From positions 114,366 to 178,365 of the forward strand of contig CAVUWO010000003.1 of assembly GCA_963745155.1 (NCBI GenBank): 64,000 nt of DNA, in the 5' to 3' direction. The notes under the pieces are model-generated. The model worked only from the letters and a program-made list of their open reading frames with translations. It searched no databases and was not told the origin of the DNA. Both the position numbers and the translations under genes were made by a program. Of the stretch, positions 43,022-59,420 are shown piece by piece. This DNA comes from an uncultured Pseudomonadota bacterium (GTDB lineage Bacteria; Pseudomonadota; Alphaproteobacteria; Rhizobiales; Xanthobacteraceae). The first letter of the stretch is position 1. Every line of letters begins with the position of its first letter.

Positions 43022-44812
43022 TCAGGCGACTTCGCGCTCGGCGCCGTTCGCCTTGGCCAGGACCGCGAGAACGTCGCCGGCGGGCATCGGCCGGCTGATC
43101 AGATAACCCTGTACCTCGGTGCAGCCTTCGGCCTTCAAATAAGCGAATTGCTCTTCGGTCTCGACCCCCTCGACCGTGGTGACCATGCCGATGTTGCCGG
43201 CGAGCCCGATGATCGCGCGCACGATCGCCGAGCTGTCGCTGTTCGCCGGCAGATCGCGCACGAACGATCGATCGATCTTGATCTTGTCGAACGGGAACAT
43301 GCGCAGATAGCTCAAGCTCGAATAGCCGGTGCCGAAGTCGTCCATGCAGATGTGAACGCCCAGGCTGCGCAACTCGTGCAGCACATGCATGATCTTGTTG
43401 TTGTCGTCGAGAAGCGCGGACTCGGTGATCTCGAGCTCCAGACGGTCGGGCTTGAGACCGGACGCCGCCAGCGCGTCCTTGACGTCCTTGAGCAGCGTTC
43501 CGGTGCGGAACTGAATCGGCGACAGATTGACCGCCAGCTTGACGTCAGCCGGCCACCGCGTCGCTTCCCGGCAGGCGTCGCGCAGCACCCAGCGGCCGAG
43601 CGGAACGATCAGGCCCATTTCTTCGGCGAGCGATATGAATTCGAGCGGCGGGATGACGCCGCGCAGCGGATGGTTCCAGCGCACCAGCGCCTCGAAGCCG
43701 GTGACGCCGCCGCCGTTGAGATTGAACAATGGCTGGTAGTGCAGCTCGAATTGGCCATGGCTCAAAGCGTCGCGCAGATCGCGCTCGAGCAGCCGGCGCG
43801 CCTGGGCCCGCGCGTTCATCTCGACTTCGAAGAAGCGATAGCCGCCGCGGGCTTCGGCCTTGGCGCGGTAGAGCGCCAGATCGGCGTTGGCCAACAGAAG
43901 ATCGGGATCGGTGCCGTCGTCGGGCGCCCAGGCGATGCCGATGCTGCAGCTTACCAGGAGCTGGTGGCCCTCGATCTGATAGGGCTGCGCGATCGCCTTG
44001 ATGATGCGGTCGGCCAGGATCCCGGCATCCTCCGCCCCTTCCTTGGCGAGCTGGATGATGGCGAATTCGTCGCCGCCCAGACGGGCGACGGTGTCGCAAT
44101 CCCGCGTCGAATGCTGCAGGCGCCGGCCGACGGCGGTCAACAAAAGATCGCCGATGCGATGTCCGAGCGTATCGTTGATGAGCTTGAACTGATCGAGATC
44201 GATGAACAGCAGCGCCAATTTTCCGCCGCCGTCTTCGACGCGCGCCAAAGCGCGCACGAGCTGATCGCGAAATTGCACGCGGTTGCCGAGCCCGGTCAGG
44301 GAATCATGCTGCGCCATGTAGCGCACGATCGCTTCGGACTGCTTGCGCTCGGCGATCTCGTGCTCGAGCTGAGCGTTGATGCGCTCGAGCTTCTGCACAT
44401 AGTGGGCCGCTGCGCGCTCGGCCTTGAGCCGGGCGACCTGGCTCTGCACGCGAGCGGAGGCGATCGCGAAGTCGATCGGCTTGGTGACGTAGTCGTTGGC
44501 GCCGAGTTCGAGCGCCTCCACCACGTCCTCGCTTTCGACCTTGGCGGTGACCATGATGACCGGCAGGGTCGATGGCGAGTGGGTGGTCCTGATCCGCTTG
44601 AGGACTTCGAGACCGTTCATCCCGGGCATCACGACATCGAGCAGGACGGCGTCGAATTGCTGCTCGGCGACGACGGCCAGCGCCGCCGCGCCATTATCCG
44701 CTTCAACGACATCAAATCCGCGCCGCCGGAAGAACCGGTGCAGTATGGTTCTGTTGTCCGCTATGTCGTCGACGACGAGCAATCGGCTTTGATGGGATGG
44801 CGCTTCGGTCAT
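43022..44812 (-). CDS. response-regulator receiver + GGDEF + EAL protein
   Basis: REC segments LLVVDDIADN...LLDVVMPGMNG, GGDEF motif RLGGDEFAI, and EAL motifs EALVRWNHP and DDFGTGYSS. Confidence 0.9.
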   Translation of the reverse strand: MTEAPSHQSRLLVVDDIADNRTILHRFFRRRGFDVVEADNGAAALAVVAEQQFDAVLLDVVMPGMNGLEVLKRIRTTHSPSTLPVIMVTAKVESEDVVEALELGANDYVTKPIDFAIASARVQSQVARLKAERAAAHYVQKLERINAQLEHEIAERKQSEAIVRYMAQHDSLTGLGNRVQFRDQLVRALARVEDGGGKLALLFIDLDQFKLINDTLGHRIGDLLLTAVGRRLQHSTRDCDTVARLGGDEFAIIQLAKEGAEDAGILADRIIKAIAQPYQIEGHQLLVSCSIGIAWAPDDGTDPDLLLANADLALYRAKAEARGGYRFFEVEMNARAQARRLLERDLRDALSHGQFELHYQPLFNLNGGGVTGFEALVRWNHPLRGVIPPLEFISLAEEMGLIVPLGRWVLRDACREATRWPADVKLAVNLSPIQFRTGTLLKDVKDALAASGLKPDRLELEITESALLDDNNKIMHVLHELRSLGVHICMDDFGTGYSSLSYLRMFPFDKIKIDRSFVRDLPANSDSSAIVRAIIGLAGNIGMVTTVEGVETEEQFAYLKAEGCTEVQGYLISRPMPAGDVLAVLAKANGAEREVA

Positions 44813-45005
44813 ATGGCTGTGGCCCGCGGGAACCCGTGTCCTCGGGCAGCAATAAGCGAAAGCTGTTAATCAACACTCCATTACCGCGGCTTAATCTCCG
44901 AAAGATAAAACGGGGTAAAGATAAACTGAACAGTTGCATTGATGGCAAGAAAGCAACCTCGGCTTGACGAAAGAACCGCGGATTTCACCCGCCCGCAAAT
45001 CCGCA

Positions 45006-45559
45006 CTAGCAACAAGCGGCGGCCCCACGACGCTCGATCGGCAAGGTAAAGCGGATGCGCGATTTATCCGGCTCCGAAACCGTGGAGACTTCGCCGCCGC
45101 GACTGCGCACGAGCTTCCACAAATTCCGCTGCAGAAAATCGGGAAATTCGCGCGCGCGCACGACAAGCTCGGTGACGCACGTTTGTCGCGCCGGTGCAGG
45201 ACCATCCACGCGCAATTCGATCGCATCGCATCCGTTGGTGAATGCGTACTCGACCATGCCGCGCACCAGCGCGCGCAGGTCGGAGGCCGGGCCTTTGACC
45301 ATGACATGATCGGGCAGGTGAAGCGTGACCGGTTGCCCGGCTCCCGTGACGAGCGCCGGCGTCGGCAGCGCGTCGCGCCAAATCGCGGCGAAATCGACCG
45401 GTTCGGCAGCCTCCTGGCTGGCCCGCCGTTCGGCCGCGTTAGTTGTTCGGCGACCCGGCGCAGCTGCGCGACGATACGGGTGTAGGTCGGCTTGTCGGCC
45501 GAGCTCGCAACCTGCAATTCCCGAGCAGCCATGCGTAAAGTGGCAACCGCGCCGTCCAT
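45006..45559 (-). pseudogene. hypothetical protein with a degenerate histidine-kinase-like C-terminal region, apparently frameshifted
   Basis: The N-terminal helix region (ORF 44891-45625 from M at 45559) continues in ORF 45006-45647 (ASQEAAEPVDF...LRALVRGMVEYAFTNG...RIRFTLP). The junction is near 45430. No H-box, N-box or G-boxes are visible. Confidence 0.4.
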
Positions 45560-45763
45560 GTCGAATTCTCCGTCGAGTTTCGTGGCAAGCGAGAACGTCG
45601 CAAATATAAATCGAGTTGTTTGCAAAACCGCTCCGACATTCCATCAAAGCACAAGGAAATTTTGCTCAAAACAATCTAAACGTTTAATCGATCAATTCGA
45701 AGTTCAGTGAAAACATTGGTGTAATAAAAGATGTATTCCGCTGGCAAAACCCGACGGTGACGC

Positions 45764-46033
45764 GTGAAAGCTGGAACGGTCGATCATCACGGCGAGCCCG
45801 ATCGCTATATCGCCTGGATGGACGGCGGGGGTGGCATGCCGTCCAGGCGGTGCCGCGTCGAGGGCGTTTCGCAGGCCGGGGCTAAATTGTGCGCCTTCGA
45901 CGGCGCGGTGCCCAACGAGTTCACGCTCTATTTCAACCGTCGCGGCGACGCCAAGGTGCGTTGTCGCGTGACCGCCCGGGCGGGCTCGATGTGTGACGTC
46001 GAATTCGTTGCATCGTTGGCGATCTACGCCTGA
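45764..46033 (+). CDS. small PilZ-like domain protein
   Basis: The pattern C-RVEGVSQAGAKL ... VPNEFTLYF ... RCRVTARAGSMCDVEF resembles single-domain PilZ proteins. The RxxxR motif is degenerate. Confidence 0.5.
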   Translation: MKAGTVDHHGEPDRYIAWMDGGGGMPSRRCRVEGVSQAGAKLCAFDGAVPNEFTLYFNRRGDAKVRCRVTARAGSMCDVEFVASLAIYA

Positions 46034-46325
46034 CGCCGGCGCGCGGCGGCGCGGGGCGAGCGGCACTTGTTCGGCGCCCCGCCGTCGAGTTGCGTGGTTG
46101 CGCACCGTGATAGGAAACGACGGAGGGTCGCCCCGACAAGCACGGACGCCCGTTTCCATAATCACAGCGTTGATTTGGATAACCAAGCCTCGAACAACAA
46201 AGTGTTTATGATAAAATTTAGCGGTGCGTTAGCCCGGCCTAGGTAATTTCCCCCAGCGATACGCGCGGTGGGGGTGCGAATGAGCGAGCTTTCCGAAATC
46301 GACGGCCGTTCCACAAACCAAGATT

Positions 46326-46730
46326 TTGCTTGTGGAAGACAGCCCGGCAAATCGCGACATGCTGACGCGCCGGCTCCAAAAGCGCGGCTTCAAGGTGTGC
46401 TGCGCGGTTGATGGGCCCATGGGCGTCGCCATGTCGGCGACGGAAGGCCCGGACCTCATCCTGATGGACATCGCGCTGGGTGCGATGGACGGCTGGGATG
46501 CGACACGGCTGATCAAGTCCGACCCGCGGACCACCGAAATTCCGATCATTGCGCTCACGGCGCACGCGCTCGCCTCGGATCGCGAGAAGAGCTTCAAGGT
46601 CGGTTGCTCCGATTTCGACACCAAGCCGGTCGATCTGGCGCGCCTGCTGGGGAAAATCCAGGCGTGCCTGCTGAGGAAGAGCGTTCGAGCAAAAAACGAC
46701 TACCAGATGGTCGCCCGCCTCGGCGGGTGA
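46326..46730 (+). CDS. single-domain CheY-like response regulator
   Basis: Segments LLVEDSPANRDML...LILMDIALGAMDG...IIALTAHA...DFDTKP. TTG 46326 is the only in-frame start. ATG 46280 (MSELSEIDGRSTN) lies one frame off, so a frameshift near 46318 is possible. Confidence 0.8.
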   Translation: MLVEDSPANRDMLTRRLQKRGFKVCCAVDGPMGVAMSATEGPDLILMDIALGAMDGWDATRLIKSDPRTTEIPIIALTAHALASDREKSFKVGCSDFDTKPVDLARLLGKIQACLLRKSVRAKNDYQMVARLGG

Positions 46731-46782
46731 TCGGCAAGAACACGACACTTGAACAAGTCGACAAAAAACGGGGGACGGCGTC

Positions 46783-48139
46783 ATGCTCAATGCAGACTCG
46801 AGGTTCGAAGCGGATCAGGCCCTGATCGGCAGCATGCGGGATTTCCGCGAGCTGCACGGCAAGGATTTGATGGCGCGCGTCGACGGTTTCTACGAGTGGC
46901 AGCACACGCGGCGCCGCCACGGCTTGTGGCCGTATTCCAAGGCGACGGAGCAGGCGCCGCTTGCGGTCTGCACGGCCAGGGACGACAGCGGCGTGAGGTT
47001 CGCCGGCCTCAACTTCGCCACGCAGGATTATCTCGGCCTGTCCTCCGATCCGGAGATCAAGGAAGTGGCGAAGGCCGTGATCGACGAGTACGGCATCCAT
47101 AGCGCCGGTTCGTCGGCCTTGGCGGGCAACACCAAATATTCGTTGCGCCTGGAAAGGACGATTGCCGAGTTCCTCGGCGTCGAGCACACCGTGCTGTATC
47201 CGACCGGTTGGGCGGCGGGATACGGCGCGATCAAGGGACTGGTGCGACCCGCCGACCACGTCGTCATGGACGGTCTTGCGCACGCCTGCCTGCAAGAGGG
47301 CGCATATTCGGCGACGGCCAACGTGCATCTGCACGGCCACCTCAATCTGGAATCCGCGCGCCGGCATCTCAAACGCATCCGCGCCAGAGACGCGGAAAAC
47401 GGCATCCTGGTGGTGACCGAGAGCTTGTTTTCGATGGACTCCGACACGCCGGACCTGCGCGCGTTGCAGGAGCTCTGCCGTGAGTACGAGGCCACGCTTC
47501 TGGTCGACGTCGCCCACGATCTCGGCGCGATGGGCGAGGGCGGGCGCGGCTTCATCGGCCAGCAGGGCATGAGCGGGCAGATCGACATCGTGATGGGAAG
47601 CTTCTCCAAGACCTTCGCGTCGAACGGCGGCTTCGTCGCCTGCAACTCGCCGGCGGTCCGGCAATACCTGAAATTCTACGGCTGCTCGGCGACGTTCTCG
47701 AACGCGCTTGTCGCCGGTGCAGGCCGCCACGGTGACGACGGCGTTCGACATCGTTCAATCGGACAAGGGGCGGCAGCTGCGGCGATTGCTGCTGCAACGC
47801 GTCGGTCAGATGCGCGACGCGCTCGCCGCGGCCGGACTGCAGGTCATCGGCGATCCGTCGGCCATCGTGCCGGTGCTGGTCGGCGACGAAGCGCTGGCGC
47901 GGATGGTCAGCCGGCGCCTGCCGGAGCTCGAAGTGATCGCGAACCTGGTGGAGTACCCGGCCGTGGCCAAAGGCAACGCCCGCTTCCGCCTGCAAATGAT
48001 GCCGACCCACAGCGCCGAGAACGTCCGGGAGCTGGCCGCGAGGCTGCGCCGAGCGGTCGATCTGACGCAGGGTGAGTACGAGCAATATCGGGCGCGGATC
48101 GGCGCGGACGTCGAGTTCGCCCAGGCCGCCGTCGCCTGA
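46783..48139 (+). pseudogene. alpha-oxoamine synthase family PLP enzyme (KBL / SPT / CqsA superfamily), frameshifted
   Basis: Motifs NFATQDYLGL, GSSALAGNT, LLVDVAHDLG and the catalytic Lys motif GSFSKTFASNGG. The C-terminal piece is ORF 47708-48139. The frame changes near 47706. Confidence 0.8.
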
Positions 48140-48170
48140 TCGGCAGTCGCGCAACTGATGGGGACCAGCC

Positions 48171-49551
48171 ATGATACGTGACAGTCTGATCGGCATCATC
48201 GACTGGTTCATTCCGGCCGAGCTGCGGATAAACAATGCAAATCTCTGGCGGGCCAGAATTTTCGTCATCAGCCATCTGCTGGGTCCGTTCAGCGCGATCG
48301 CCATATTGGGCTATCTGTACGGCGTTCTGCAGGTGCACGACGTCGTGTTCTGGACGATCTGCGTCCTGTGCGGCGCGTTCTGGTTGCTGCCTTTGGGCTT
48401 GAAGGTGATCCGTAGCCTGACCTGGCTCGCGTTGTTCTCGTTCTGGGATCTGACCTTCGTCAGCGTGTTCGGCTCGTTCTTCTACGGCGGGGTCAGCTCG
48501 CCCTTCCTGCCCTGGCTCTTGTGCGCGCTCCTGATCGGCTTCTTCTATCTGAGCGACCGGGTGCAGCTCGTGGTCGGCATTTTCGTCGCGCATCTCACCG
48601 GCTTCTGCGTGGCGTATGTGATCACCGGCGCGTTTCCCGAGCGGGTGCCGGTCGCCGCACTGTCCACGGTCGGGATGATCTCGGTGCTGTGCGCCACGCT
48701 CTACAGCTCGATGATGGCGCTGTACTACGCCTACGTCATGATCGAGCAGTCGGCGCTGCGCCAGGAGATCGAGAAGCACCTGGTCACGGCGCGGAAGCTT
48801 CGCCAGGCCAAGCGCGACGCGGAACTCGCGGACGAGGCCAAGGCGGTGTTTCTCGCCAAGATGAATCATCAGCTGCGCACGCCCCTCAACGCCATCATCG
48901 GCTACAGCGAGATTCTGCTGGAGGAAATCGAACCCGAGGACGATTCGACCGACAAGGCCGATCTGACAACCATCAACAACGCCGGCCGACATTTGCTGTC
49001 GTTGCTCTCGGACGTGCTGAGCATGCCCAGGATCGAGTCGGACGATGTCGAGATTTCGCTGCGTCCGGTCGACGTCGAACGCTGCCTCGACGAAGTCGTC
49101 TCGACCTGCCGGAACCTTATTTCGCAGAACGCCAACGAACTCGTGGTCGAAAAGGCCGGCGATCTCGGGCAAATCGAAACCGACGAAACGCGACTGCGTC
49201 AGATCCTGATCAATCTGCTCGGCAATGCCGGCAAGTTCACCAAGGACGGCAAAGTGGTGTTGCGGGCGAGCCGCGTCGCCGCGGGGCCGTCGGGCGCAGA
49301 TCGTCATATCGGTCGCGGACACCGGCATCGGCATCCCCAAGGAAGCCATCGACGGCCTGTTCACGAATTTCAACAGCGCCAACGCCGCGACCTCGCAGTC
49401 GTACGGCGGCTCCGGGCTCGGTCTCGCGGTCAGTCGCAACCTGGCGCATTTGCTCAACGGCGACATCGAGGTCGAAAGCGAGCCGGGCCGCGGCTCGACA
49501 TTCACCGTCCGGCTGCCCGTCGCGGCGCCGGCGATGGCTGCCGCGGCGTGA
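48171..49551 (+). pseudogene. membrane sensor histidine kinase 1 (about 6 predicted TM segments, non-hybrid), frameshifted
   Basis: A hydrophobic N-terminal region of about 190 aa, a coiled linker, the H-box FLAKMNHQLRTPLNAIIGYSE, the N-box LINLLGNAGKF, and G-boxes DTGIGI/GGSGLGL in ORF 49225-49551. The frame changes at gggg 49283-49286. Confidence 0.8.
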
Positions 49552-49583
49552 GCGTGTTCCTTCAGAACGAACGGGGTAGTGCG

Positions 49584-51008
49584 ATGCGGAAATTTCTCAA
49601 AAAGCTCGATGCACGGTTGACCTTGTTCGTGGATCAGTTCATCCCGGCCAAGCTGAAATCGTCCGGCGACCTCGTGCAGGGCGTGCGGATGTTTCTGTTC
49701 AGCCACTTTTTCGGCCCGTTTCTCGGCCACACCATCTCGCTGTCGATGCTTTATCTCCAGGGCGGCGCGGACTTGTCATGGTGGATATTCTTCATCGCGG
49801 TGACGGCGTTCTGGCCGTTCCCGCTGCTGCTGCGGCTGACCGGCTGGTATGTGCCGCTGTCGCTGCTGTCCATCGAAAATCTGATGTTCTGCATCTTCTG
49901 GGGCTGTTACCAATATGGCGGCGTCTCTTCGCCGATCATGCCCTGGCTGGTGACGGTGCCGCTGCTGGCGTTCTTCTATCTGCCGGAGCGGGCGACGCGC
50001 ATCGTCGTCGGCTTTCAGATCATCGCCAACCTCGCGGTGTTCTACGGCATCTATTCCGTGATCGGCTTCCCGCAGAAAGTCCCGATGGACGGCCTCGTCA
50101 TCCTCGGCCTGGTATCGACCTTCTGCGCGAGCATCTACGTGTCGATGATGGCGCTCTACTATGCCAACGTCGTCTCCTCGCAAGCCGAACTCGAGCAGGA
50201 GATTGCGCGCCACAAGGCGACGGAGAAGCAGCTGCGCGACGCCACCGTGCAGATCGAACGCGCGACGCTCGCGAAATCCGAGTTCCTCGCCAAGATGAGC
50301 CACGAATTGCGGAATCCGCTCAATTCGATCATCGGCTACAGCGAGGTGCTGCTCGACGAGCAGGAGTCGCCGAACGACCAGAAGTACAAGGACCTGAATT
50401 CGATCAAAGATGCGGGTCACCGGCTGCTCGAGCTCATCAACGATCTGCTCGACCTGTCCAAGCTCGAGGCGGGCAGGATGGAATTGCAGCCCGACCGCAT
50501 CGAAATTCGCAGCATGTTCGATGAGATCGCGGAACATTGGCGCGCGGCCATCACCAACAATGGCAATGAATTCAAGCTGCAGCCGCCAGCCGTCGGCGTC
50601 ATTCGCTGCGACGCCGGCAAGCTGGCGCGCGTCATCACCAATCTTCTCAGCAACGCTGCGAAGTTCAGCACGAACGGCTGCGTCACGTTTTCCGCGTCGA
50701 TGCAAGGCGACGTCCTCACGGTGTCGGTCGCGGACACCGGCGTCGGCATTGCCGCGGAAAAGATCAACGGACTGTTCGAGACGTTCGGCCGCTCGGAAGA
50801 GGAAACGGCGAGCAATTATGCCGACGACGTCAGGCTCGGATTGCCGTTGGCGCAGCGTTACTGTCGTCTGATGGGCGGAGAGATTTCGGTCGAAAGCAAG
50901 GTGGGCTATGGTTCGTGCTTCACCCTTACAACGCCCGTCGAGCCGCTCGACGTCGACGTTCGCCACGAGCCGGAGTTGGAAGCCGAATTGCTGACCAGGG
51001 CAGCCTGA
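49584..51008 (+). CDS. membrane sensor histidine kinase 2, tandem paralogue of kinase 1
   Basis: Same architecture as kinase 1. H-box FLAKMSHELRNPLNSIIGYSE, N-box ITNLLSNAAKF, and the G1 motif DTGVGI. The N-terminal TM module shares several motifs with kinase 1. Confidence 0.85.
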   Translation: MRKFLKKLDARLTLFVDQFIPAKLKSSGDLVQGVRMFLFSHFFGPFLGHTISLSMLYLQGGADLSWWIFFIAVTAFWPFPLLLRLTGWYVPLSLLSIENLMFCIFWGCYQYGGVSSPIMPWLVTVPLLAFFYLPERATRIVVGFQIIANLAVFYGIYSVIGFPQKVPMDGLVILGLVSTFCASIYVSMMALYYANVVSSQAELEQEIARHKATEKQLRDATVQIERATLAKSEFLAKMSHELRNPLNSIIGYSEVLLDEQESPNDQKYKDLNSIKDAGHRLLELINDLLDLSKLEAGRMELQPDRIEIRSMFDEIAEHWRAAITNNGNEFKLQPPAVGVIRCDAGKLARVITNLLSNAAKFSTNGCVTFSASMQGDVLTVSVADTGVGIAAEKINGLFETFGRSEEETASNYADDVRLGLPLAQRYCRLMGGEISVESKVGYGSCFTLTTPVEPLDVDVRHEPELEAELLTRAA

Positions 51009-51080
51009 GTTCGGATTGCGCGGTTGAGCGAACAAAGTTGATCCCGAACATGGCGGTGCGACCGGGCGGTCGTACCGGCC

Positions 51081-51129
51081 TTCACGAACGAGCCGCCTTC
51101 ATGAACGAACCGGTTCATGAATGAACCGA
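51081..51129. promoter_or_regulatory. three direct repeats of a ~16-bp unit (ttcacgaacgagccgc / ttcatgaacgaaccgg / ttcatgaatgaaccga) upstream of the Spy/CpxP-like gene
   Basis: Read directly from the sequence, about 150 bp upstream of ATG 51281. The array resembles direct-repeat binding sites for an OmpR/PhoB-type regulator. This role is hypothetical. Confidence 0.4.
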
Positions 51130-51280
51130 CAGAAACGGCAGCGCTGCGGCAAGCACACGCCAAATCACACTGTGGCGATGCAAGTTTAAAACCCAACCTG
51201 ACGAAAGTTTAACTTGCCCCGAAGCGGTCGCCGGCTCTTACTTCCGGCACAATCCCGCTGTGGAGATCTTGGAGGATCAC

Positions 51281-51967
51281 ATGTTGAAATCGGTAGCCGT
51301 GGGGGCGGCGGCGCTGGCGATCGTAGGCTCGTCGATCGTCTATGCGCAGCAGCGTTCCGGTGGCCCGGACGGCGTCGGCTCGGGCGGATTTGGCCACGGC
51401 CTGCGGTTGGTGGCGCATTATCGGCCGAGCATCGACGACATGAAGGCGTTCACCGACGCGCGCATCGCCGCACTCAAGGCCGGACTGCAGCTCACGCCGG
51501 ATCAGGACAAGAACTGGCCGCCGTTCGAGCAGGCGCTGCGCGATTTGGCCAAACTCCGCATCGACCACATGCAAGCCCGCCTGGCGCGCGAAGAGGCGGG
51601 AGCGCCGCAGACGCCGCCCGCGCCGTTCGAACGGCTGGCGAAACGCGCGGACGCCATGGCCAAGCGCAGCGCGGCATTGAAGCAGCTCGCCGATACCGGC
51701 GCCCCGCTTTATCAGAGCCTGAGCGATGCGCAGAAGGAGCGCTTCAAGATTTTGGCGCACAGCCTGCGTCCGCATCACCATCATTTCGCCTGGCACCGCG
51801 GCGGCGAGGGCGGCTGGCGCGACGGTCGCGGCGAAGGCCAAGACGGTGGCCATGAAGGTGGCCATGACGGTGGCTGGCGCGGCCGCTGGTTCGGCCATGG
51901 GGAGCAGGGGCCGGATGGCCCGATGCACCGCATGATGGGCCGTGACGAGCAGGGCTCTGAGCTCTGA
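51281..51967 (+). CDS. periplasmic Spy/CpxP-family (LTxxQ motif) protein with a His/Gly-rich tail
   Basis: RBS ggagg, then ATG 51281 and a signal peptide. LTPDQ and SDAQKERF motifs are present. The C-terminal tail is HHHHFAWHRGGEGGWRDGRGEGQDGGHEGGHDGGW. Confidence 0.7.
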   Translation: MLKSVAVGAAALAIVGSSIVYAQQRSGGPDGVGSGGFGHGLRLVAHYRPSIDDMKAFTDARIAALKAGLQLTPDQDKNWPPFEQALRDLAKLRIDHMQARLAREEAGAPQTPPAPFERLAKRADAMAKRSAALKQLADTGAPLYQSLSDAQKERFKILAHSLRPHHHHFAWHRGGEGGWRDGRGEGQDGGHEGGHDGGWRGRWFGHGEQGPDGPMHRMMGRDEQGSEL

Positions 51968-57392: not shown

Positions 57393-58638
57393 ATGAATCT
57401 CGACGTCAACACCCTTTTCCTCGTGACCATTTACGTCGAAGCGATCCTCGGATTGCTGCTGTTGTTCGCCTGGGTGCAGAACACCGCCATCACCGCGGTG
57501 GCGTGGTGGGGTTTTGCGCATCTGTTGCGCGCCGTCTCGGTGATGCTGTTCGGCCTGTTCGGGTCGGTGTCCGATCTGATTTCGATCGATCTCGCCAACT
57601 CGCTGCTCTTCACCGCGTTCGCTCTGACGTGGACCGGCGCGCGCGTGTTCGATCATCGCCGGCCGCTGCCGGTCGTTGTTGTTCGGCGGCGCCGCGCTGT
57701 GGCTCGTGGTGTCGCGGCTGCCGAGTTTCGCGTCGTCCTGGGATCTGCGCGTGCTGACGAGCTGCGGCATCATCACCGCCTATACCTGGGCGACGGCCTA
57801 CGAGTTCTGGCGCGGCCGCAGCGAGCCCTTGGTGTCGCGCTGGCCGGCGATCTTCATGCTGTTCGCGCACGGCGCGCTCTATCTGTTGCGCACGCCGTTC
57901 GGCGCGATGCTGCCCTGGTCGCCGACCGGCAGCCAGGTATTCGACAGCGTGTGGATGACCGTGCTCAGCTTCGAGGCGCTGTTGTTCACGATCGCCATCG
58001 CCTTCATCCTTCTGGCGATGGCGAAGGAGCGCACCGAGCATCGCCACAAGACCGCCGCGCTGATCGATCCGCTCACCGGCATCGCCAACCGCCGCGCCTT
58101 CCTGCAAGACGGCGAAGCCCAGCTCAAGCGGCAATCGACCGATCCGCGTCCGACCGCGGTGATGCTGCTCGATCTCGATAATTTCAAGTCGATCAACGAC
58201 CGCTTCGGTCACGCCGTCGGCGACCGCGCGCTGCAGATCTTCGCGCAGGCCACGGCCGCCTGCATGCGCCGCCTCGATCTGTTCGGCCGGCTCGGCGGCG
58301 AGGAATTCGCGGCCGTCCTGTTCGACACCACCCACGAGCGGGCGCTGGCGATCGGCGAGCAGATCCGCACGTCCTTTGCCGAGGCGACGCGCGACGTCGA
58401 CGGCCGCCCGGTGGCCGCGACGGTGAGCATCGGCGTCGTCATCAGTCAGGATGCCGTGCTCGATCTCTCGGCGCTCTTGGCGCAGGCCGACCACGCGCTT
58501 TATCGCGCCAAGGACAACGGCCGCAACCGCGTCGAGGTCGCCTCGCTCGACCATATCCTCGATCGCGCCAAGCGCGGCGGGCCCCAGCGTCAAGGCGGCG
58601 CCGGCGCCAAACCCGGCGCTGCCCAGACGGCGGCCTGA
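57393..58638 (+). pseudogene. membrane diguanylate cyclase (GGDEF), frameshifted
   Basis: A multi-TM N-terminus, then DPLTGIANRRAF, LDLDNFKSINDRFGH and RLGGEEFAAV. The frame changes at gg 57671-57672. Confidence 0.85.
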
Positions 58639-58734
58639 CCGGCCGTCCGCACCGTTCCCATCAGCGCTTCCACGTACACAATTGTTGGTGCGTATTTAAC
58701 GCGACATTGACTCGTCAGGCGTCCTAGTTCCGCC

Positions 58735-59420
58735 ATGATCAACCTCCGCCTTCTCATCGTGGACGACGATCCGGGCGTGCGCGCCTGTGTCGCCGCCGCG
58801 TTGAAGGATGATCCCTTGTTCGTGTTGCGCGCGTGCGCCGCCGGACGCGAGGCGCTCGCCGCCGCCGTCGAATGGCGGCCCGATCTCATTCTGCTCGACG
58901 CGCAAATGCCCGGCATGAGCGGGACGACGGTGTTGAAGCGGTTGCGGGCGGACCGGCGTACGGCGCCGATTCCCGTCGTGTTCATGGCCGCGGCACCTGC
59001 GCGGGTGCAGCGGGACGCGCGGCTGATAGCGTGCGGCGCCGCCGGCGTCATCGACAAGCCTTCTATCGCCGAGCCTTGCGAACCGGCGACGCTCGGCGCG
59101 ACATTGCGCCGCTTTGTCGCCGTCGAAGGCGTGCTCTCGCCGGCGCGTGAGAGATTTTTCGCCGGCTCGAGGCCGACGCCGGGGCGCTGTCGGACTGTCG
59201 ACGCGATCTGGCGCAGACGCGCTCCGAGCCGGTGCTGCTGCGGATCAGTCAGATCGCGCATTCGCTCGCCGGCGCCGGCGGCATCTATGGCTTTGCCGGC
59301 ATCTCCTGCGACTCCGCCGCGCTGTCGGACGCCGCTGCGAGCATCCTCGCCGGCCGCGCCAGACCGAGCGAAGTCGAGCGCGCCCTGGACCGTCTCCTGG
59401 AACGCATCGAGCCGCGTTAG
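58735..59420 (+). pseudogene. response-regulator receiver + Hpt fusion protein, frameshifted
   Basis: REC segments LLIVDDDPGV...LILLDAQMPGMSG. The Hpt helix with His (ISQIAHSLAGAGGIYGF) is in ORF 59232-59420. The frame changes near 59162. Confidence 0.75.

Follow-up and report, generated by a model that had tools for sequence, protein, structure and literature searches.

Does the cluster of a receiver, a PLP enzyme and two membrane kinases in this uncultured bacterium of the Xanthobacteraceae form a dedicated signalling unit, and how is such a unit related to the hydroxyketone quorum-sensing systems of Vibrio and Legionella? In the window (the whole 64,000-nt stretch of DNA that was analysed), the relevant features are as follows:

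46280..46730, forward strand: REC, a single-domain CheY-like receiver (Pfam Response_reg, E=1.8e-22; ~149 aa once repaired)
46783..48139, forward strand: AOS, a PLP enzyme of the alpha-oxoamine synthase family (Pfam Aminotran_1_2 in two frames; 451 aa once repaired)
48171..49551, forward strand: HK1, six-TM sensor, HisKA and HATPase_c over two frames (Pfam; canonical G2 box GGSGLGL)
48171-48755, forward strand: sensor module of HK1, the counterpart of 49584..50183 in HK2
49584..51008, forward strand: HK2, six-TM sensor, HisKA and HATPase_c, intact (Pfam; degenerate G2 or ATP-lid box DDVRLGL)
49584..50183, forward strand: sensor module of HK2, a six-TM domain (from an alignment of 95 sensors)
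43022..44812, reverse strand: REC-GGDEF-EAL protein, 596 aa (Pfam EAL 2e-77, GGDEF 3e-45, REC 7e-32)

The four genes REC, AOS, HK1 and HK2 lie where an earlier note on this DNA had placed them (46280-51008), with the spacing that it gave (52, 31 and 32 nt), and the sequence also shows the AT-rich flanks, 45650-45760 and 46140-46260; HK1 and HK2, with about six predicted TM helices apiece, are paralogous as it claimed (40% identity across the full length, sensor included). The small ORF that it called PilZ-like is without Pfam support and is present in close relatives only.

Three indels interrupt the locus, positioned by comparison with two intact relatives, L001 and L005. In the receiver gene, a surplus A in GAAA at 46296-46298 puts the ATG at 46280 out of frame with the REC (the repaired N-terminus reads MSELSESTAVPQTKILLVED); the AOS gene carries a 1-nt insertion, a surplus T at 47708, and HK1 a 1-nt insertion near ~49292. 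The frame changes reported previously are present in REC, AOS and HK1, but they are not peculiar to the locus: frame changes occur in 9 of the 18 genes syntenic with a relative (window 37-60 kb), including ABC-transporter and cystathionine-type genes; the same gene fragmentation recurs at other long-read MAG loci; and AOS orthologues with 94-96% identity have intact reading frames. With reading frames also shifted in neighbouring genes and unbroken in close orthologues, errors in the sequence almost certainly account for the three 1-nt frameshifts, and they explain the locus better than the inactivity that had been considered; the window copy would be dead if the frameshifts were real.

Scanning genomes for the kinase sensor domain yielded 80 loci, whose flanks were examined by tblastn; in all sufficiently flanked loci but two, the kinases lie next to an orthologue of the AOS (59-96% identity) and to the cognate REC (57-98%). 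Conversely, an AOS-centred metagenome scan, counting loci flanked by 3.5 kb or more on both sides, found sensors in 21 of 21 loci and REC in 20 of 21. The module genes occur in at least four gene orders, so that their linkage has outlived rearrangement; the hosts are Xanthobacteraceae, Burkholderiales, Rhodospirillales-type lineages and Acidobacteria, mostly uncultured soil bacteria. AOS and sensor are obligately linked in both directions across phyla, and the cassette forms a genuine functional unit; the four genes in the window are one copy of a widespread, apparently undescribed signalling module. The linkage in both scans bears out the proposal of a conserved, dedicated unit of AOS, two kinases and receiver: the neighbourhood is kept across related genomes, around an AOS that is not of a housekeeping type. 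Additional HK/REC sets lacking AOS were found only in MAGs with a complete module on another contig, and are comparable to the orphan receptors of known signal systems; Pseudorhodobacter turbinis carries a lone, distant homologue of the sensor (35% identity) amid IS elements, which indicates that the sensor fold is not strictly bound to AOS. The module genes encode no export function, which counts against the circuit proposed below, and additional genes of lipid biosynthesis (reductase, N-acyltransferase, ACP) are not conserved in the neighbourhoods. A FadL-type outer-membrane channel, absent from the window, adjoins only nine loci; an SDR adjoins some modules, and in the window’s lineage the module has an LTXXQ (CpxP/Spy-like) gene downstream of it.

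The AOS carries the PLP-lysine motif GSFSKTFASNGG; among its orthologues, the PLP Lys in SFSKTF, a His and an Asp-x-x-His are all invariant. The enzyme scores under every NCBIfam equivalog cut-off (on the CqsA-type model, 177 bits where 428 are required) and shares 26-31% identity with characterised BioF, KBL, SPT, ALAS and CqsA, being no nearer to CqsA (28.7%) than to KBL, SPT or BioF; on these scores and identities, its assignment as a CqsA/LqsA, BioF, KBL, SPT or ALAS orthologue was rejected. In an NJ tree, CqsA was the first characterised reference joining the large clade that contains the module AOS. The nearest sequence relatives are acyl-ACP-type AOS proteins that carry FAAL-ACP, FAD monooxygenase, FeeM or cNMP-binding domains as fusion partners (FAAL-ACP-AOS and related multidomain forms match the AOS core at 44-61% identity); unlike these, the module enzyme is without a carrier or activating domain and is paired with signalling proteins. 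Such fusions point to fatty-acyl substrates and, where the partner binds cNMP, to a regulatory input of another kind; for the module enzyme, these relatives suggest condensation of an acyl-thioester, with a fatty-type acyl group, and an amino acid. The N-terminal extension of ~85 aa described previously was overstated, since alignment to the SPT model begins at residue 27 and to the KBL model at residues 41-42; only ~25-40 residues are surplus, and these are conserved among orthologues.

The sensor consists almost wholly of TM helices with short loops, and has invariant polar residues within TM1. The alignment of 95 sensors identified R35, F37 and H41 in TM1, the motif YGGxSSPxxxW in the loop from TM3 to TM4, and S178, A182, Y185 and A190 in TM6 as invariant. 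Searches of Pfam, its RegB TM model included, and of PDB sequences returned zero matches, and the sensor is, judging by its sequence, an undescribed six-TM domain. CqsS is likewise a six-TM kinase with a membrane-embedded sensor domain (PMC3376566); the earlier view that the module sensor is unlike it agrees with the hhalign probability of 0.09% against the CqsS TM profile, which amounts to no detectable homology. The RegB-family model, the only one with repeated weak HMM matches, was weakly matched by 32 of the 95 sensors; the hhalign probability against RegB was 0.95%, which is not significant and leaves a resemblance at motif level only. As to the catalytic part, all 59 HK1-type orthologues have a canonical G2 box, and the degenerate HK2-type box is kept in 54 of 76. 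The kinases are not hybrid in the window, as had been stated, but in other lineages the orthologous HK2 bears a C-terminal receiver (23 of 76 orthologues; G2 canonical in 17 and degenerate in 6).

The acidic pair, phospho-Asp, Thr and Lys of the receiver are invariant in ~130 orthologues, and the protein is without an output domain. REC and AOS are fused in 13 loci, in Alpha- and Betaproteobacteria both and with short-read assemblies included, and 49 of the top 120 protein matches in the database are fusions as well; no such fusion is known for CqsA. In 20 loci with other gene orders, AOS is directly followed by a second REC gene. AOS looks like a phosphorelay target because REC is fused to it, or because a second receiver gene follows it where REC is not adjacent; given the fusions, the enzyme is probably controlled by phosphorylation and not merely a signal source. 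A role of the receiver as simple pathway output, as read previously, is unlikely, since the protein lacks an output domain and is AOS-fused in many orthologues. REC and AOS are separate genes in the window, so that direct control here follows a Rosetta-stone argument from the fusion in relatives. Response regulators with enzymatic outputs include PleD (REC-GGDEF), CheB and RpfG (REC-HD-GYP); many module orthologues resemble them in carrying a canonical N-terminal receiver, with the phospho-acceptor set intact, on an enzyme, and by analogy this likeness implies phosphorylation-controlled catalysis in the REC-AOS fusions. The module differs in that its output is a PLP-dependent alpha-oxoamine synthase and in that the parts are separate in the window; within the searchable literature library, no paper describing a REC joined to such a synthase was found.

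The best explanation, held tentatively at a probability of roughly 0.45, is a circuit of synthase and receptors that feeds back on itself; here we infer the AOS product, the cue sensed by the kinases, the phosphotransfer routes and the effect on AOS. The AOS would convert acyl-CoA or acyl-ACP and an amino acid to a lipophilic alpha-aminoketone, or a derivative thereof; the ligand of HK1 and HK2 would be dissolved in the membrane, most likely this AOS product, and would be bound in a pocket of the invariant TM1 Arg/His and the GG-x-SSP-x3-W loop. HK1 would act with a canonical catalytic core and HK2, its ATP lid degenerate in the window, would probably be mostly a phosphatase or modulator; jointly they would determine phosphorylation of the dedicated receiver. 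The receiver would bind AOS and govern its activity; since it would act on the enzyme to which it is fused in many relatives, the proposed circuit feeds back on synthesis. In the window’s lineage, HK1 and HK2 probably also drive the neighbouring REC-GGDEF-EAL protein, with c-di-GMP as output.

Kinases that respond to an unrelated cue, with the AOS purely as their output, would account for the obligate linkage just as well. This alternative, in which the kinases sense an independent membrane cue (quinone redox state as in RegB, envelope or lipid stress, or an imported hydrophobic compound) and the receiver switches AOS with no self-made signal, is rather unlikely; the end product would be a membrane aminolipid, a sphingoid-like base or another metabolite, and c-di-GMP a parallel output. 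It is consistent with the REC-AOS fusions, which make AOS an output domain, with the FadL-type uptake channels and SDR beside some modules and the downstream LTXXQ gene, and with parallels to RegB, a six-TM kinase whose membrane-embedded sensor binds ubiquinone via TM1 and short periplasmic-loop residues (PMC3000548). RegB/PrrB/ActS and the module sensor share an N-terminal domain of six TM helices joined by very short loops, conserved polar TM1 residues, and GG-x-x-(N/S)-P-F in the TM3-TM4 loop (PMC3000548): the module loop YGGVSSPF resembles the RegB quinone-site GGXXNPF, the TM1 polar pair parallels RegB R31/Q38, and the weak matches of 32 sensors to the RegB-family model point the same way. 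However, the similarity is not statistically significant, the fully conserved and essential Asn of GGXXNPF, required for quinone binding, is Ser in the module, and the partner of RegB is a RegA-type DNA-binding regulator, that of the module an AOS and a bare REC. If the sensor answered generic redox or stress cues, it ought to occur with further outputs too, whereas the closer sensors (at least 45% identity) are almost never found apart from the AOS clade, and the same is true in reverse; the lack of additional conserved lipid-biosynthesis genes also speaks against a purely metabolic role.

The feedback circuit also has to be weighed against a classical Cqs/Lqs-type system, with a constitutive autoinducer synthase, kinase receptors and a receiver that relays downstream and not onto the synthase, which appears distinctly improbable. 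The module layout is like that of the Vibrio and Legionella hydroxyketone systems, with parts that appear unrelated. It shares with Legionella the parts list of LqsA, LqsS/LqsT and LqsR (an AOS-family enzyme, two dedicated, homologous six-TM non-hybrid kinases, and a receiver) and the phospho-His just past a ~200-aa N-terminal sensor, near residue 200-240; LqsS and LqsT are homologous and partly antagonistic (PMC5289986, PMC3376566). With Vibrio CqsA/CqsS (CAI-1), it shares an AOS synthase adjacent to a six-TM receptor kinase and, in some lineages, a CqsS-like hybrid HK2 with C-terminal REC and Hpt-containing genes nearby; the position of CqsA in the NJ tree fits as well. Yet the AOS fails the CqsA/LqsA model, falls outside that family and is equally far from CqsA, KBL, SPT and BioF, and the sensors are without detectable homology to the CqsS type, where the literature places LqsS; the unit is thus distinct from Cqs/Lqs, as the earlier note had supposed. 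The module receiver is a bare REC without the LqsR-type C-terminal part or another output domain, fused or adjacent to the synthase; the cluster holds both kinases, two receptors against one in Vibrio, and often REC-GGDEF-EAL too. A decayed or coincidental locus, be it frameshifted pseudogenes or a housekeeping BioF/KBL/SPT beside an unrelated two-component system, would accord with the 1-nt corrections that three of the four genes need for read-through, and with automatic annotation of the orthologues as ‘glycine C-acetyltransferase’ or ‘7-keto-8-aminopelargonate synthetase-like’; it is made very improbable by the frame changes in syntenic genes, the fragmentation at other long-read MAG loci, the intact close orthologues, the AOS scores under all housekeeping cut-offs, and a linkage kept across phyla and gene orders.

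The suspected connection to c-di-GMP is borne out as gene linkage: in 45 of 84 loci the module is accompanied by an orthologous REC-GGDEF-EAL gene (50-96% identity), a likely accessory output. In Xanthobacteraceae this gene sits upstream in divergent orientation; in Burkholderiales and in one acidobacterial locus it is found immediately downstream of HK2.

A list of ORFs, Pfam scans and inspection of the sequence itself confirmed four co-directional genes in the window, spaced by gaps of 52, 31 and 32 nt, as had been described from the sequence alone; a gene for a REC-GGDEF-EAL enzyme lies upstream on the opposite strand.

46280-46730: REC, CheY-like receiver, co-directional with AOS, HK1 and HK2
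46783-48139: AOS, alpha-oxoamine synthase family PLP enzyme, co-directional; lysine motif GSFSKTFASNGG; Aminotran_1_2 matches
48171-49551: HK1, histidine kinase, co-directional; about six TM segments, then HisKA/HATPase_c
49584-51008: HK2, histidine kinase, co-directional; about six TM segments, then HisKA/HATPase_c
43022-44812: REC-GGDEF-EAL gene, opposite strand, upstream of the module

The REC gene encodes a protein of approximately 150 aa in which the receiver is the sole domain (Pfam/NCBIfam); a stop codon and the 52-nt gap separate it from AOS, as in the closest relatives. HK1 and HK2 are paralogs with 40% identity over their full length; about six hydrophobic segments fall within residues 28-190, and HisKA begins near residue 224. 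Rfam gave no match at E ≤ 0.1 across window positions 44800-51400, and a promoter/terminator consensus scan no excess over the shuffled expectation. The locus is flanked by a DUF6611-like gene (approximately 45027-45559, minus strand) and by a gene for an LTXXQ (CpxP/Spy-like) periplasmic protein (51281-51964, plus strand). A conserved 71-aa ORF (45818-46027, plus strand) has no Pfam match, and Pfam lends no support to the previous reading of this stretch (45764-46033) as PilZ-like. These three genes were rejected as parts of the module since they are present only in close Xanthobacteraceae relatives, which amounts to local synteny.

Alignment with two intact close relatives of the window locus, L001 (approximately 89% nucleotide identity) and L005 (approximately 91%; the closest genome locus, with 96-98% amino acid identity), placed three single-base insertions that are specific to the window.

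46296-46298: extra A in REC; the repaired REC starts MSELSESTAVPQTKILLVED
47708: extra T in AOS
approximately 49292: insertion in HK1

All three 1-nt frame changes, one of which the earlier note had called only possible, are present in the sequence; of its two alternatives, an inactive locus or sequence errors, the second is favored, as neighboring genes are affected too. Frame changes occur in nine of the 18 window genes that are syntenic with L001 (37-60 kb; 37200-59500), namely REC, AOS and HK1 in the module and the following genes outside it.

Cys_Met_PP (cystathionine-type) enzyme
approximately 41507: ABC permease
approximately 42588: ABC ATPase
approximately 45440: DUF6611-like gene
approximately 57672: GGDEF gene
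approximately 59155: 228-aa REC protein

The indel density in window positions 37200-59500, approximately 1 per 2.5 kb, is typical of an unpolished long-read assembly. Since so many syntenic genes are affected, genes are fragmented in the same way in other loci from long-read MAGs, and intact orthologs exist at 94-96% amino acid identity, the frameshifts in REC, AOS and HK1 were treated as probable sequence errors, and frame-repaired proteins were used in later analyses; pseudogene calls anywhere within 37200-59500 are unsafe.

The repaired AOS scored below the cut-off of every curated NCBIfam equivalog model of its family.

Scores of the window AOS against NCBIfam equivalog models (bits; cut-off)
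BioF: 274; 426
KBL: 238; 460
SPT, two models: 232; 640 and 216; 500
ALAS: 186; 339
CqsA/LqsA (NF005526): 176.6; 428

KBL and SPT are its best solved relatives in the PDB, with CqsA among the weaker matches. In an alignment of 114 sequences trimmed to 338 core columns, with references taken from PDB alignments and with CqsA and ALAS sequences that match PDB entries 2wk8 (100%) and 2bwn (near-identical), core identity was 30.9% to KBL, 30.5% to SPT, 29.2% to BioF, 28.7% to CqsA (2wk8) and 26.0% to ALAS; the enzyme is about equidistant from all characterized subfamilies, and its core is 55-61% identical to uncharacterized relatives. A neighbor-joining tree, built with few references and with CqsA representing the CqsA/LqsA family, placed it within a 104-leaf clade of uncharacterized enzymes, with every characterized reference, including CqsA, outside; across 100 bootstrap replicates, the module clade stayed free of references. 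The profile and phylogeny comparison that had been proposed thus sets AOS apart from CqsA, BioF, KBL, SPT and ALAS, and the housekeeping identity that the earlier note had weighed against a signaling role falls away. The N-terminal extension of about 85 aa that it had described consists for the most part of the N-terminal segment usual in AOS enzymes, with which the SPT model aligns from residue 27 onward. Sixteen diverse orthologs all retain the lysine of the SFSKTF motif, a His and Asp-x-x-His. Within the 104-leaf clade, enzymes occur as fusions to FAAL-ACP, acyl-CoA dehydrogenase, FAD monooxygenase, FeeM or cyclic-nucleotide-binding domains. The nearest clusters outside the module are multidomain proteins (P0125, P0135, P0130, P0133, P0136, P0141, P0147, P0153) that combine AOS with a cyclic-nucleotide-binding domain at either end, or take the forms FAD monooxygenase-AOS, FAAL-ACP-AOS, FAAL-acyl-CoA dehydrogenase-ACP-AOS and ACP-AOS-FeeM; judging from the cNMP-binding fusions, regulatory domains of a second kind seem to have been joined to AOS in this clade.

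Fusions of approximately 615 aa, in the order REC, low-complexity linker, AOS, account for 49 of the 120 best AOS matches; 13 of the retrieved loci, from Alpha- and Betaproteobacteria, encode them, short-read assemblies included, with the caveat that in long-read MAGs indel errors can affect whether the two genes are read as fused or split. A REC gene lies directly upstream of AOS, as in the window, in 28 more loci; in other gene orders, a second, different REC gene directly follows AOS at its 3′ side (20 loci), and in several loci the two genes apparently abut or overlap. The phospho-acceptor set (E/D-D, Asp, Thr, Lys) is invariant in approximately 130 REC orthologs, and such an intact set is shared with response regulators with enzymatic output; these carry REC and enzyme in one polypeptide, whereas the two are separate in the window and often fused in its orthologs. 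Because REC lacks an output domain and is fused to AOS in orthologs, we infer by the usual fusion logic that the receiver probably acts on AOS. The phosphorelay would then have the enzyme as a target at the least, regardless of whether a signal also originates from it. The flow of information sketched in the earlier note is revised to this extent, with the enzyme downstream of the phosphorelay.

The linkage of the four genes was followed from both sides. The order REC-AOS-HK-HK was the same in close relatives in the first look-ups. A kinase-side scan, with an alignment of the N-terminal six-TM sensor domain only against one genome per species, found 80 loci, nearly all in MAGs, from Xanthobacteraceae, Stellaceae, Ferrovibrionaceae, Micropepsaceae, Acetobacteraceae, Acidobacteria, Burkholderiales (Rubrivivax, Methylibium, Rhodoferax, Rhizobacter, Acidovorax) and the cultured Virgifigura deserti. 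These loci show at least four gene orders.

REC-AOS-HK1-HK2
AOS-HK2 ... REC-HK1
HK1 ... HK2-REC, with AOS following in reverse orientation
HK1 on the minus strand, then AOS-HK2-REC

By tblastn, an AOS ortholog (59-96% identity) and the cognate REC (57-98%) lie beside the kinases; among contigs of sufficient length there are two exceptions, L082 and L083, each of which is an additional set of receptors in a MAG whose complete module lies on a different contig (L052 and L076). From the other side, an AOS alignment searched against metagenome contigs found more than 522 relatives, of which 80 loci were kept; where at least 3.5 kb was available on both sides, kinases were present in 21 of 21 loci and REC in 20. 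This linkage, conserved in both directions in the neighborhood check that had been proposed, survives rearrangement and extends across phyla, and thereby shows REC, AOS, HK1 and HK2 to form a functional unit. The sets in L082 (1415-7049) and L083 (2458-3018) have no AOS and look like orphan receptors; that in L082 comprises a hybrid HK2, the cognate REC, one more CheY-like gene and, judged by eye, an EAL-like protein of 396 aa. In the plasmid collection, the sole find of the sensor family was a distant orphan (35% identity; L165:8956-10413) on the 1.58-Mb replicon NZ_CP039965.1 of Pseudorhodobacter turbinis S12M18; it retains the motifs RMFLISH and GGSTSP..GW and stands alone between IS/transposase genes, with AOS and a cognate REC absent within 9 kb, and the same record contains a second match.

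The sensor domain has no assigned Pfam or NCBIfam family, apart from weak RegB-type matches (model NF033792, 32 of 95 sensors, best E = 0.087; at most six for any other family), and its profile retrieved nothing from PDB sequences at E ≤ 10. Across the 95 aligned sensors, Arg35, Phe37 and His41 in TM1, the motif YGG-x-SSP-x3-W in the loop that joins TM3 to TM4, and Ser178, Ala182, Tyr185 and Ala190 in TM6 are invariant. The ATP-binding part differs between the paralogs: the G2 box of HK1 is canonical, GG(S/T)GLGL, in 59 of 59 HK1-type orthologs, and that of HK2 (the ATP lid) is degenerate in 54 of 76 HK2-type orthologs, including L001, locus L004 and the window (DDVRLGL, 50800-50850), in the conserved forms DDVRLGLP, DEAGLGLP and ENPGLGL. 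This pattern suggests that HK1 and HK2 may be an ancient pair of kinase and pseudo-kinase, possibly a phosphatase, with a probable division of labor between a kinase and a phosphatase or modulator. In Rhodospirillales-type lineages, HK2 can be a hybrid kinase whose C-terminus bears a receiver.

To our knowledge, the only characterized AOS-based signaling systems are Cqs and Lqs, both in aquatic pathogens. The module shares with them an AOS fold with the catalytic PLP-lysine (CqsA/LqsA), a kinase gene beside its cognate AOS gene, and a six-TM sensor at the N-terminus that leads directly into HisKA/HATPase_c, as described for CqsS and LqsS (PMC3376566); two homologous kinases are also found in Legionella, and the hybrid kinase of Vibrio has its counterpart in some HK2 (PMC5289986, PMC3376566). 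In contrast, the module AOS falls below the NF005526 cut-off and outside the CqsA grouping, and the receiver consists of REC only, whereas LqsR adds a family-specific C-terminal part (PMC3376566). Because NCBIfam has no model specific to CqsS, protein-database sequences of CqsS and RegB were used for profile-profile comparisons. Against the TM region of CqsS, represented by a shallow profile of seven database N-termini (one of them NCBI-named CqsS), hhalign detected no homology of the 95 sensors (probability 0.09%, E = 0.61), which bears out the previous impression that the sensor does not resemble CqsS. Ubiquinone sensing by RegB depends on GGXXNPF in the TM3-TM4 loop, whose Asn and Phe are needed for quinone binding, and on Arg/Gln in TM1 (PMC3000548). 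The module loop reads YGGVSSP(F/I), with Ser in place of the invariant Asn and without an invariant Phe; against a shallow profile of nine RegB TM domains, the hhalign alignment (probability 0.95%, E = 0.058) covered exactly the GG..PF loop and TM4, and the likeness to RegB appears to lie at the motif level only. Full-text literature searches found neither a receiver domain or two-component system combined with an alpha-oxoamine synthase, nor Cqs/Lqs-like systems in the host lineages of the module.

The c-di-GMP output that had been suggested stands at the level of conserved gene linkage: in 45 of 84 loci, the module is accompanied by a linked ortholog of the REC-GGDEF-EAL enzyme (50-96% identity). 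In Xanthobacteraceae this gene lies upstream in divergent orientation; in Burkholderiales and one acidobacterial locus it comes immediately 3′ of HK2. A further GGDEF gene and the 228-aa REC protein lie 6 kb downstream (57393-59417); together with the upstream gene they form a c-di-GMP-rich neighborhood that is kept in L001 and L004.

The biochemical steps that we infer from these patterns, to which as a whole we assign a probability of roughly 0.45, would run as follows: AOS would condense an amino acid with an acyl thioester of the fatty type, yielding a lipophilic aminoketone; this product would be detected within the membrane by both six-TM kinases; the kinases would set the phosphorylation of the dedicated receiver, which would gate AOS in a positive or homeostatic loop; and in this lineage they would also act on the REC-GGDEF-EAL enzyme. 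The last two steps could be kept with kinases that sense an unrelated membrane cue, such as the quinone redox state, the main alternative, though a less likely one; the near-exclusive two-way association of the closer sensor relatives (≥45% identity) with the AOS clade favors, without proving, a synthase-receptor pair, and the distant P. turbinis sensor is an orphan. A classical Cqs/Lqs scheme, with the receiver as a pure downstream relay, draws on the common architecture of AOS and six-TM kinases, paired kinases and hybrid variants, yet it is improbable, as the module lacks membership among CqsA/LqsA synthases, CqsS-type sensors and LqsR; decay or a coincidental assembly of the genes is very improbable indeed.

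The module would be a third, independently assembled AOS-based signaling solution. Its copies in metagenomes from soil and peat number in the hundreds, and its hosts belong to lineages that resist cultivation (Xanthobacteraceae, Burkholderiales, Stellaceae, Acidobacteria). Tentatively, it could represent a new circuit class for cell-cell or membrane lipid signaling in abundant, mostly uncultured soil bacteria, combining an AOS-derived lipophilic signal, a new six-TM receptor-kinase family, a synthase-gating receiver (post-translational autoinduction or homeostasis), the first described PLP-enzyme response-regulator output, and c-di-GMP wiring. The genuinely new elements are the PLP-enzyme output, in which a PLP-dependent condensing enzyme appears to be under the direct control of a receiver, and the undescribed six-TM sensor domain with its sharply defined, putative invariant pocket; the conserved link of the circuit to a REC-GGDEF-EAL enzyme is a further novelty. 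Virgifigura deserti SYSU D60014, cultured and with a complete module whose intact AOS gene is L055:4189-5514, offers an experimental entry point.

Additional genes adjoin the module in some lineages. A FadL/TodX-family outer-membrane channel is found in nine loci of Rhodospirillales-type lineages and V. deserti (L064:2825-4111, minus strand; L066:83-2248, minus strand; L055:448-1863; six more loci), and a generic SDR in six; the latter had looked KDSR-like by eye, a candidate identity rejected when it matched generic SDR models only. Channel and SDR may point to a hydrophobic molecule that is taken up or modified. In some modules there are also genes of the types REC-Hpt, REC-HisKA-HATPase or REC-PAS-kinase.

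L051:10505-11494, minus strand: gene of one of these types
L043:10859-11752, minus strand: gene of one of these types
L051:10912-12672, minus strand: gene of one of these types
L055:2395-3924 (V. deserti): gene of one of these types

A third kinase is present in L064 (5679-6962), and the gene content of L051, L043, L055 and L064 indicates probable multistep phosphorelays in these lineages.
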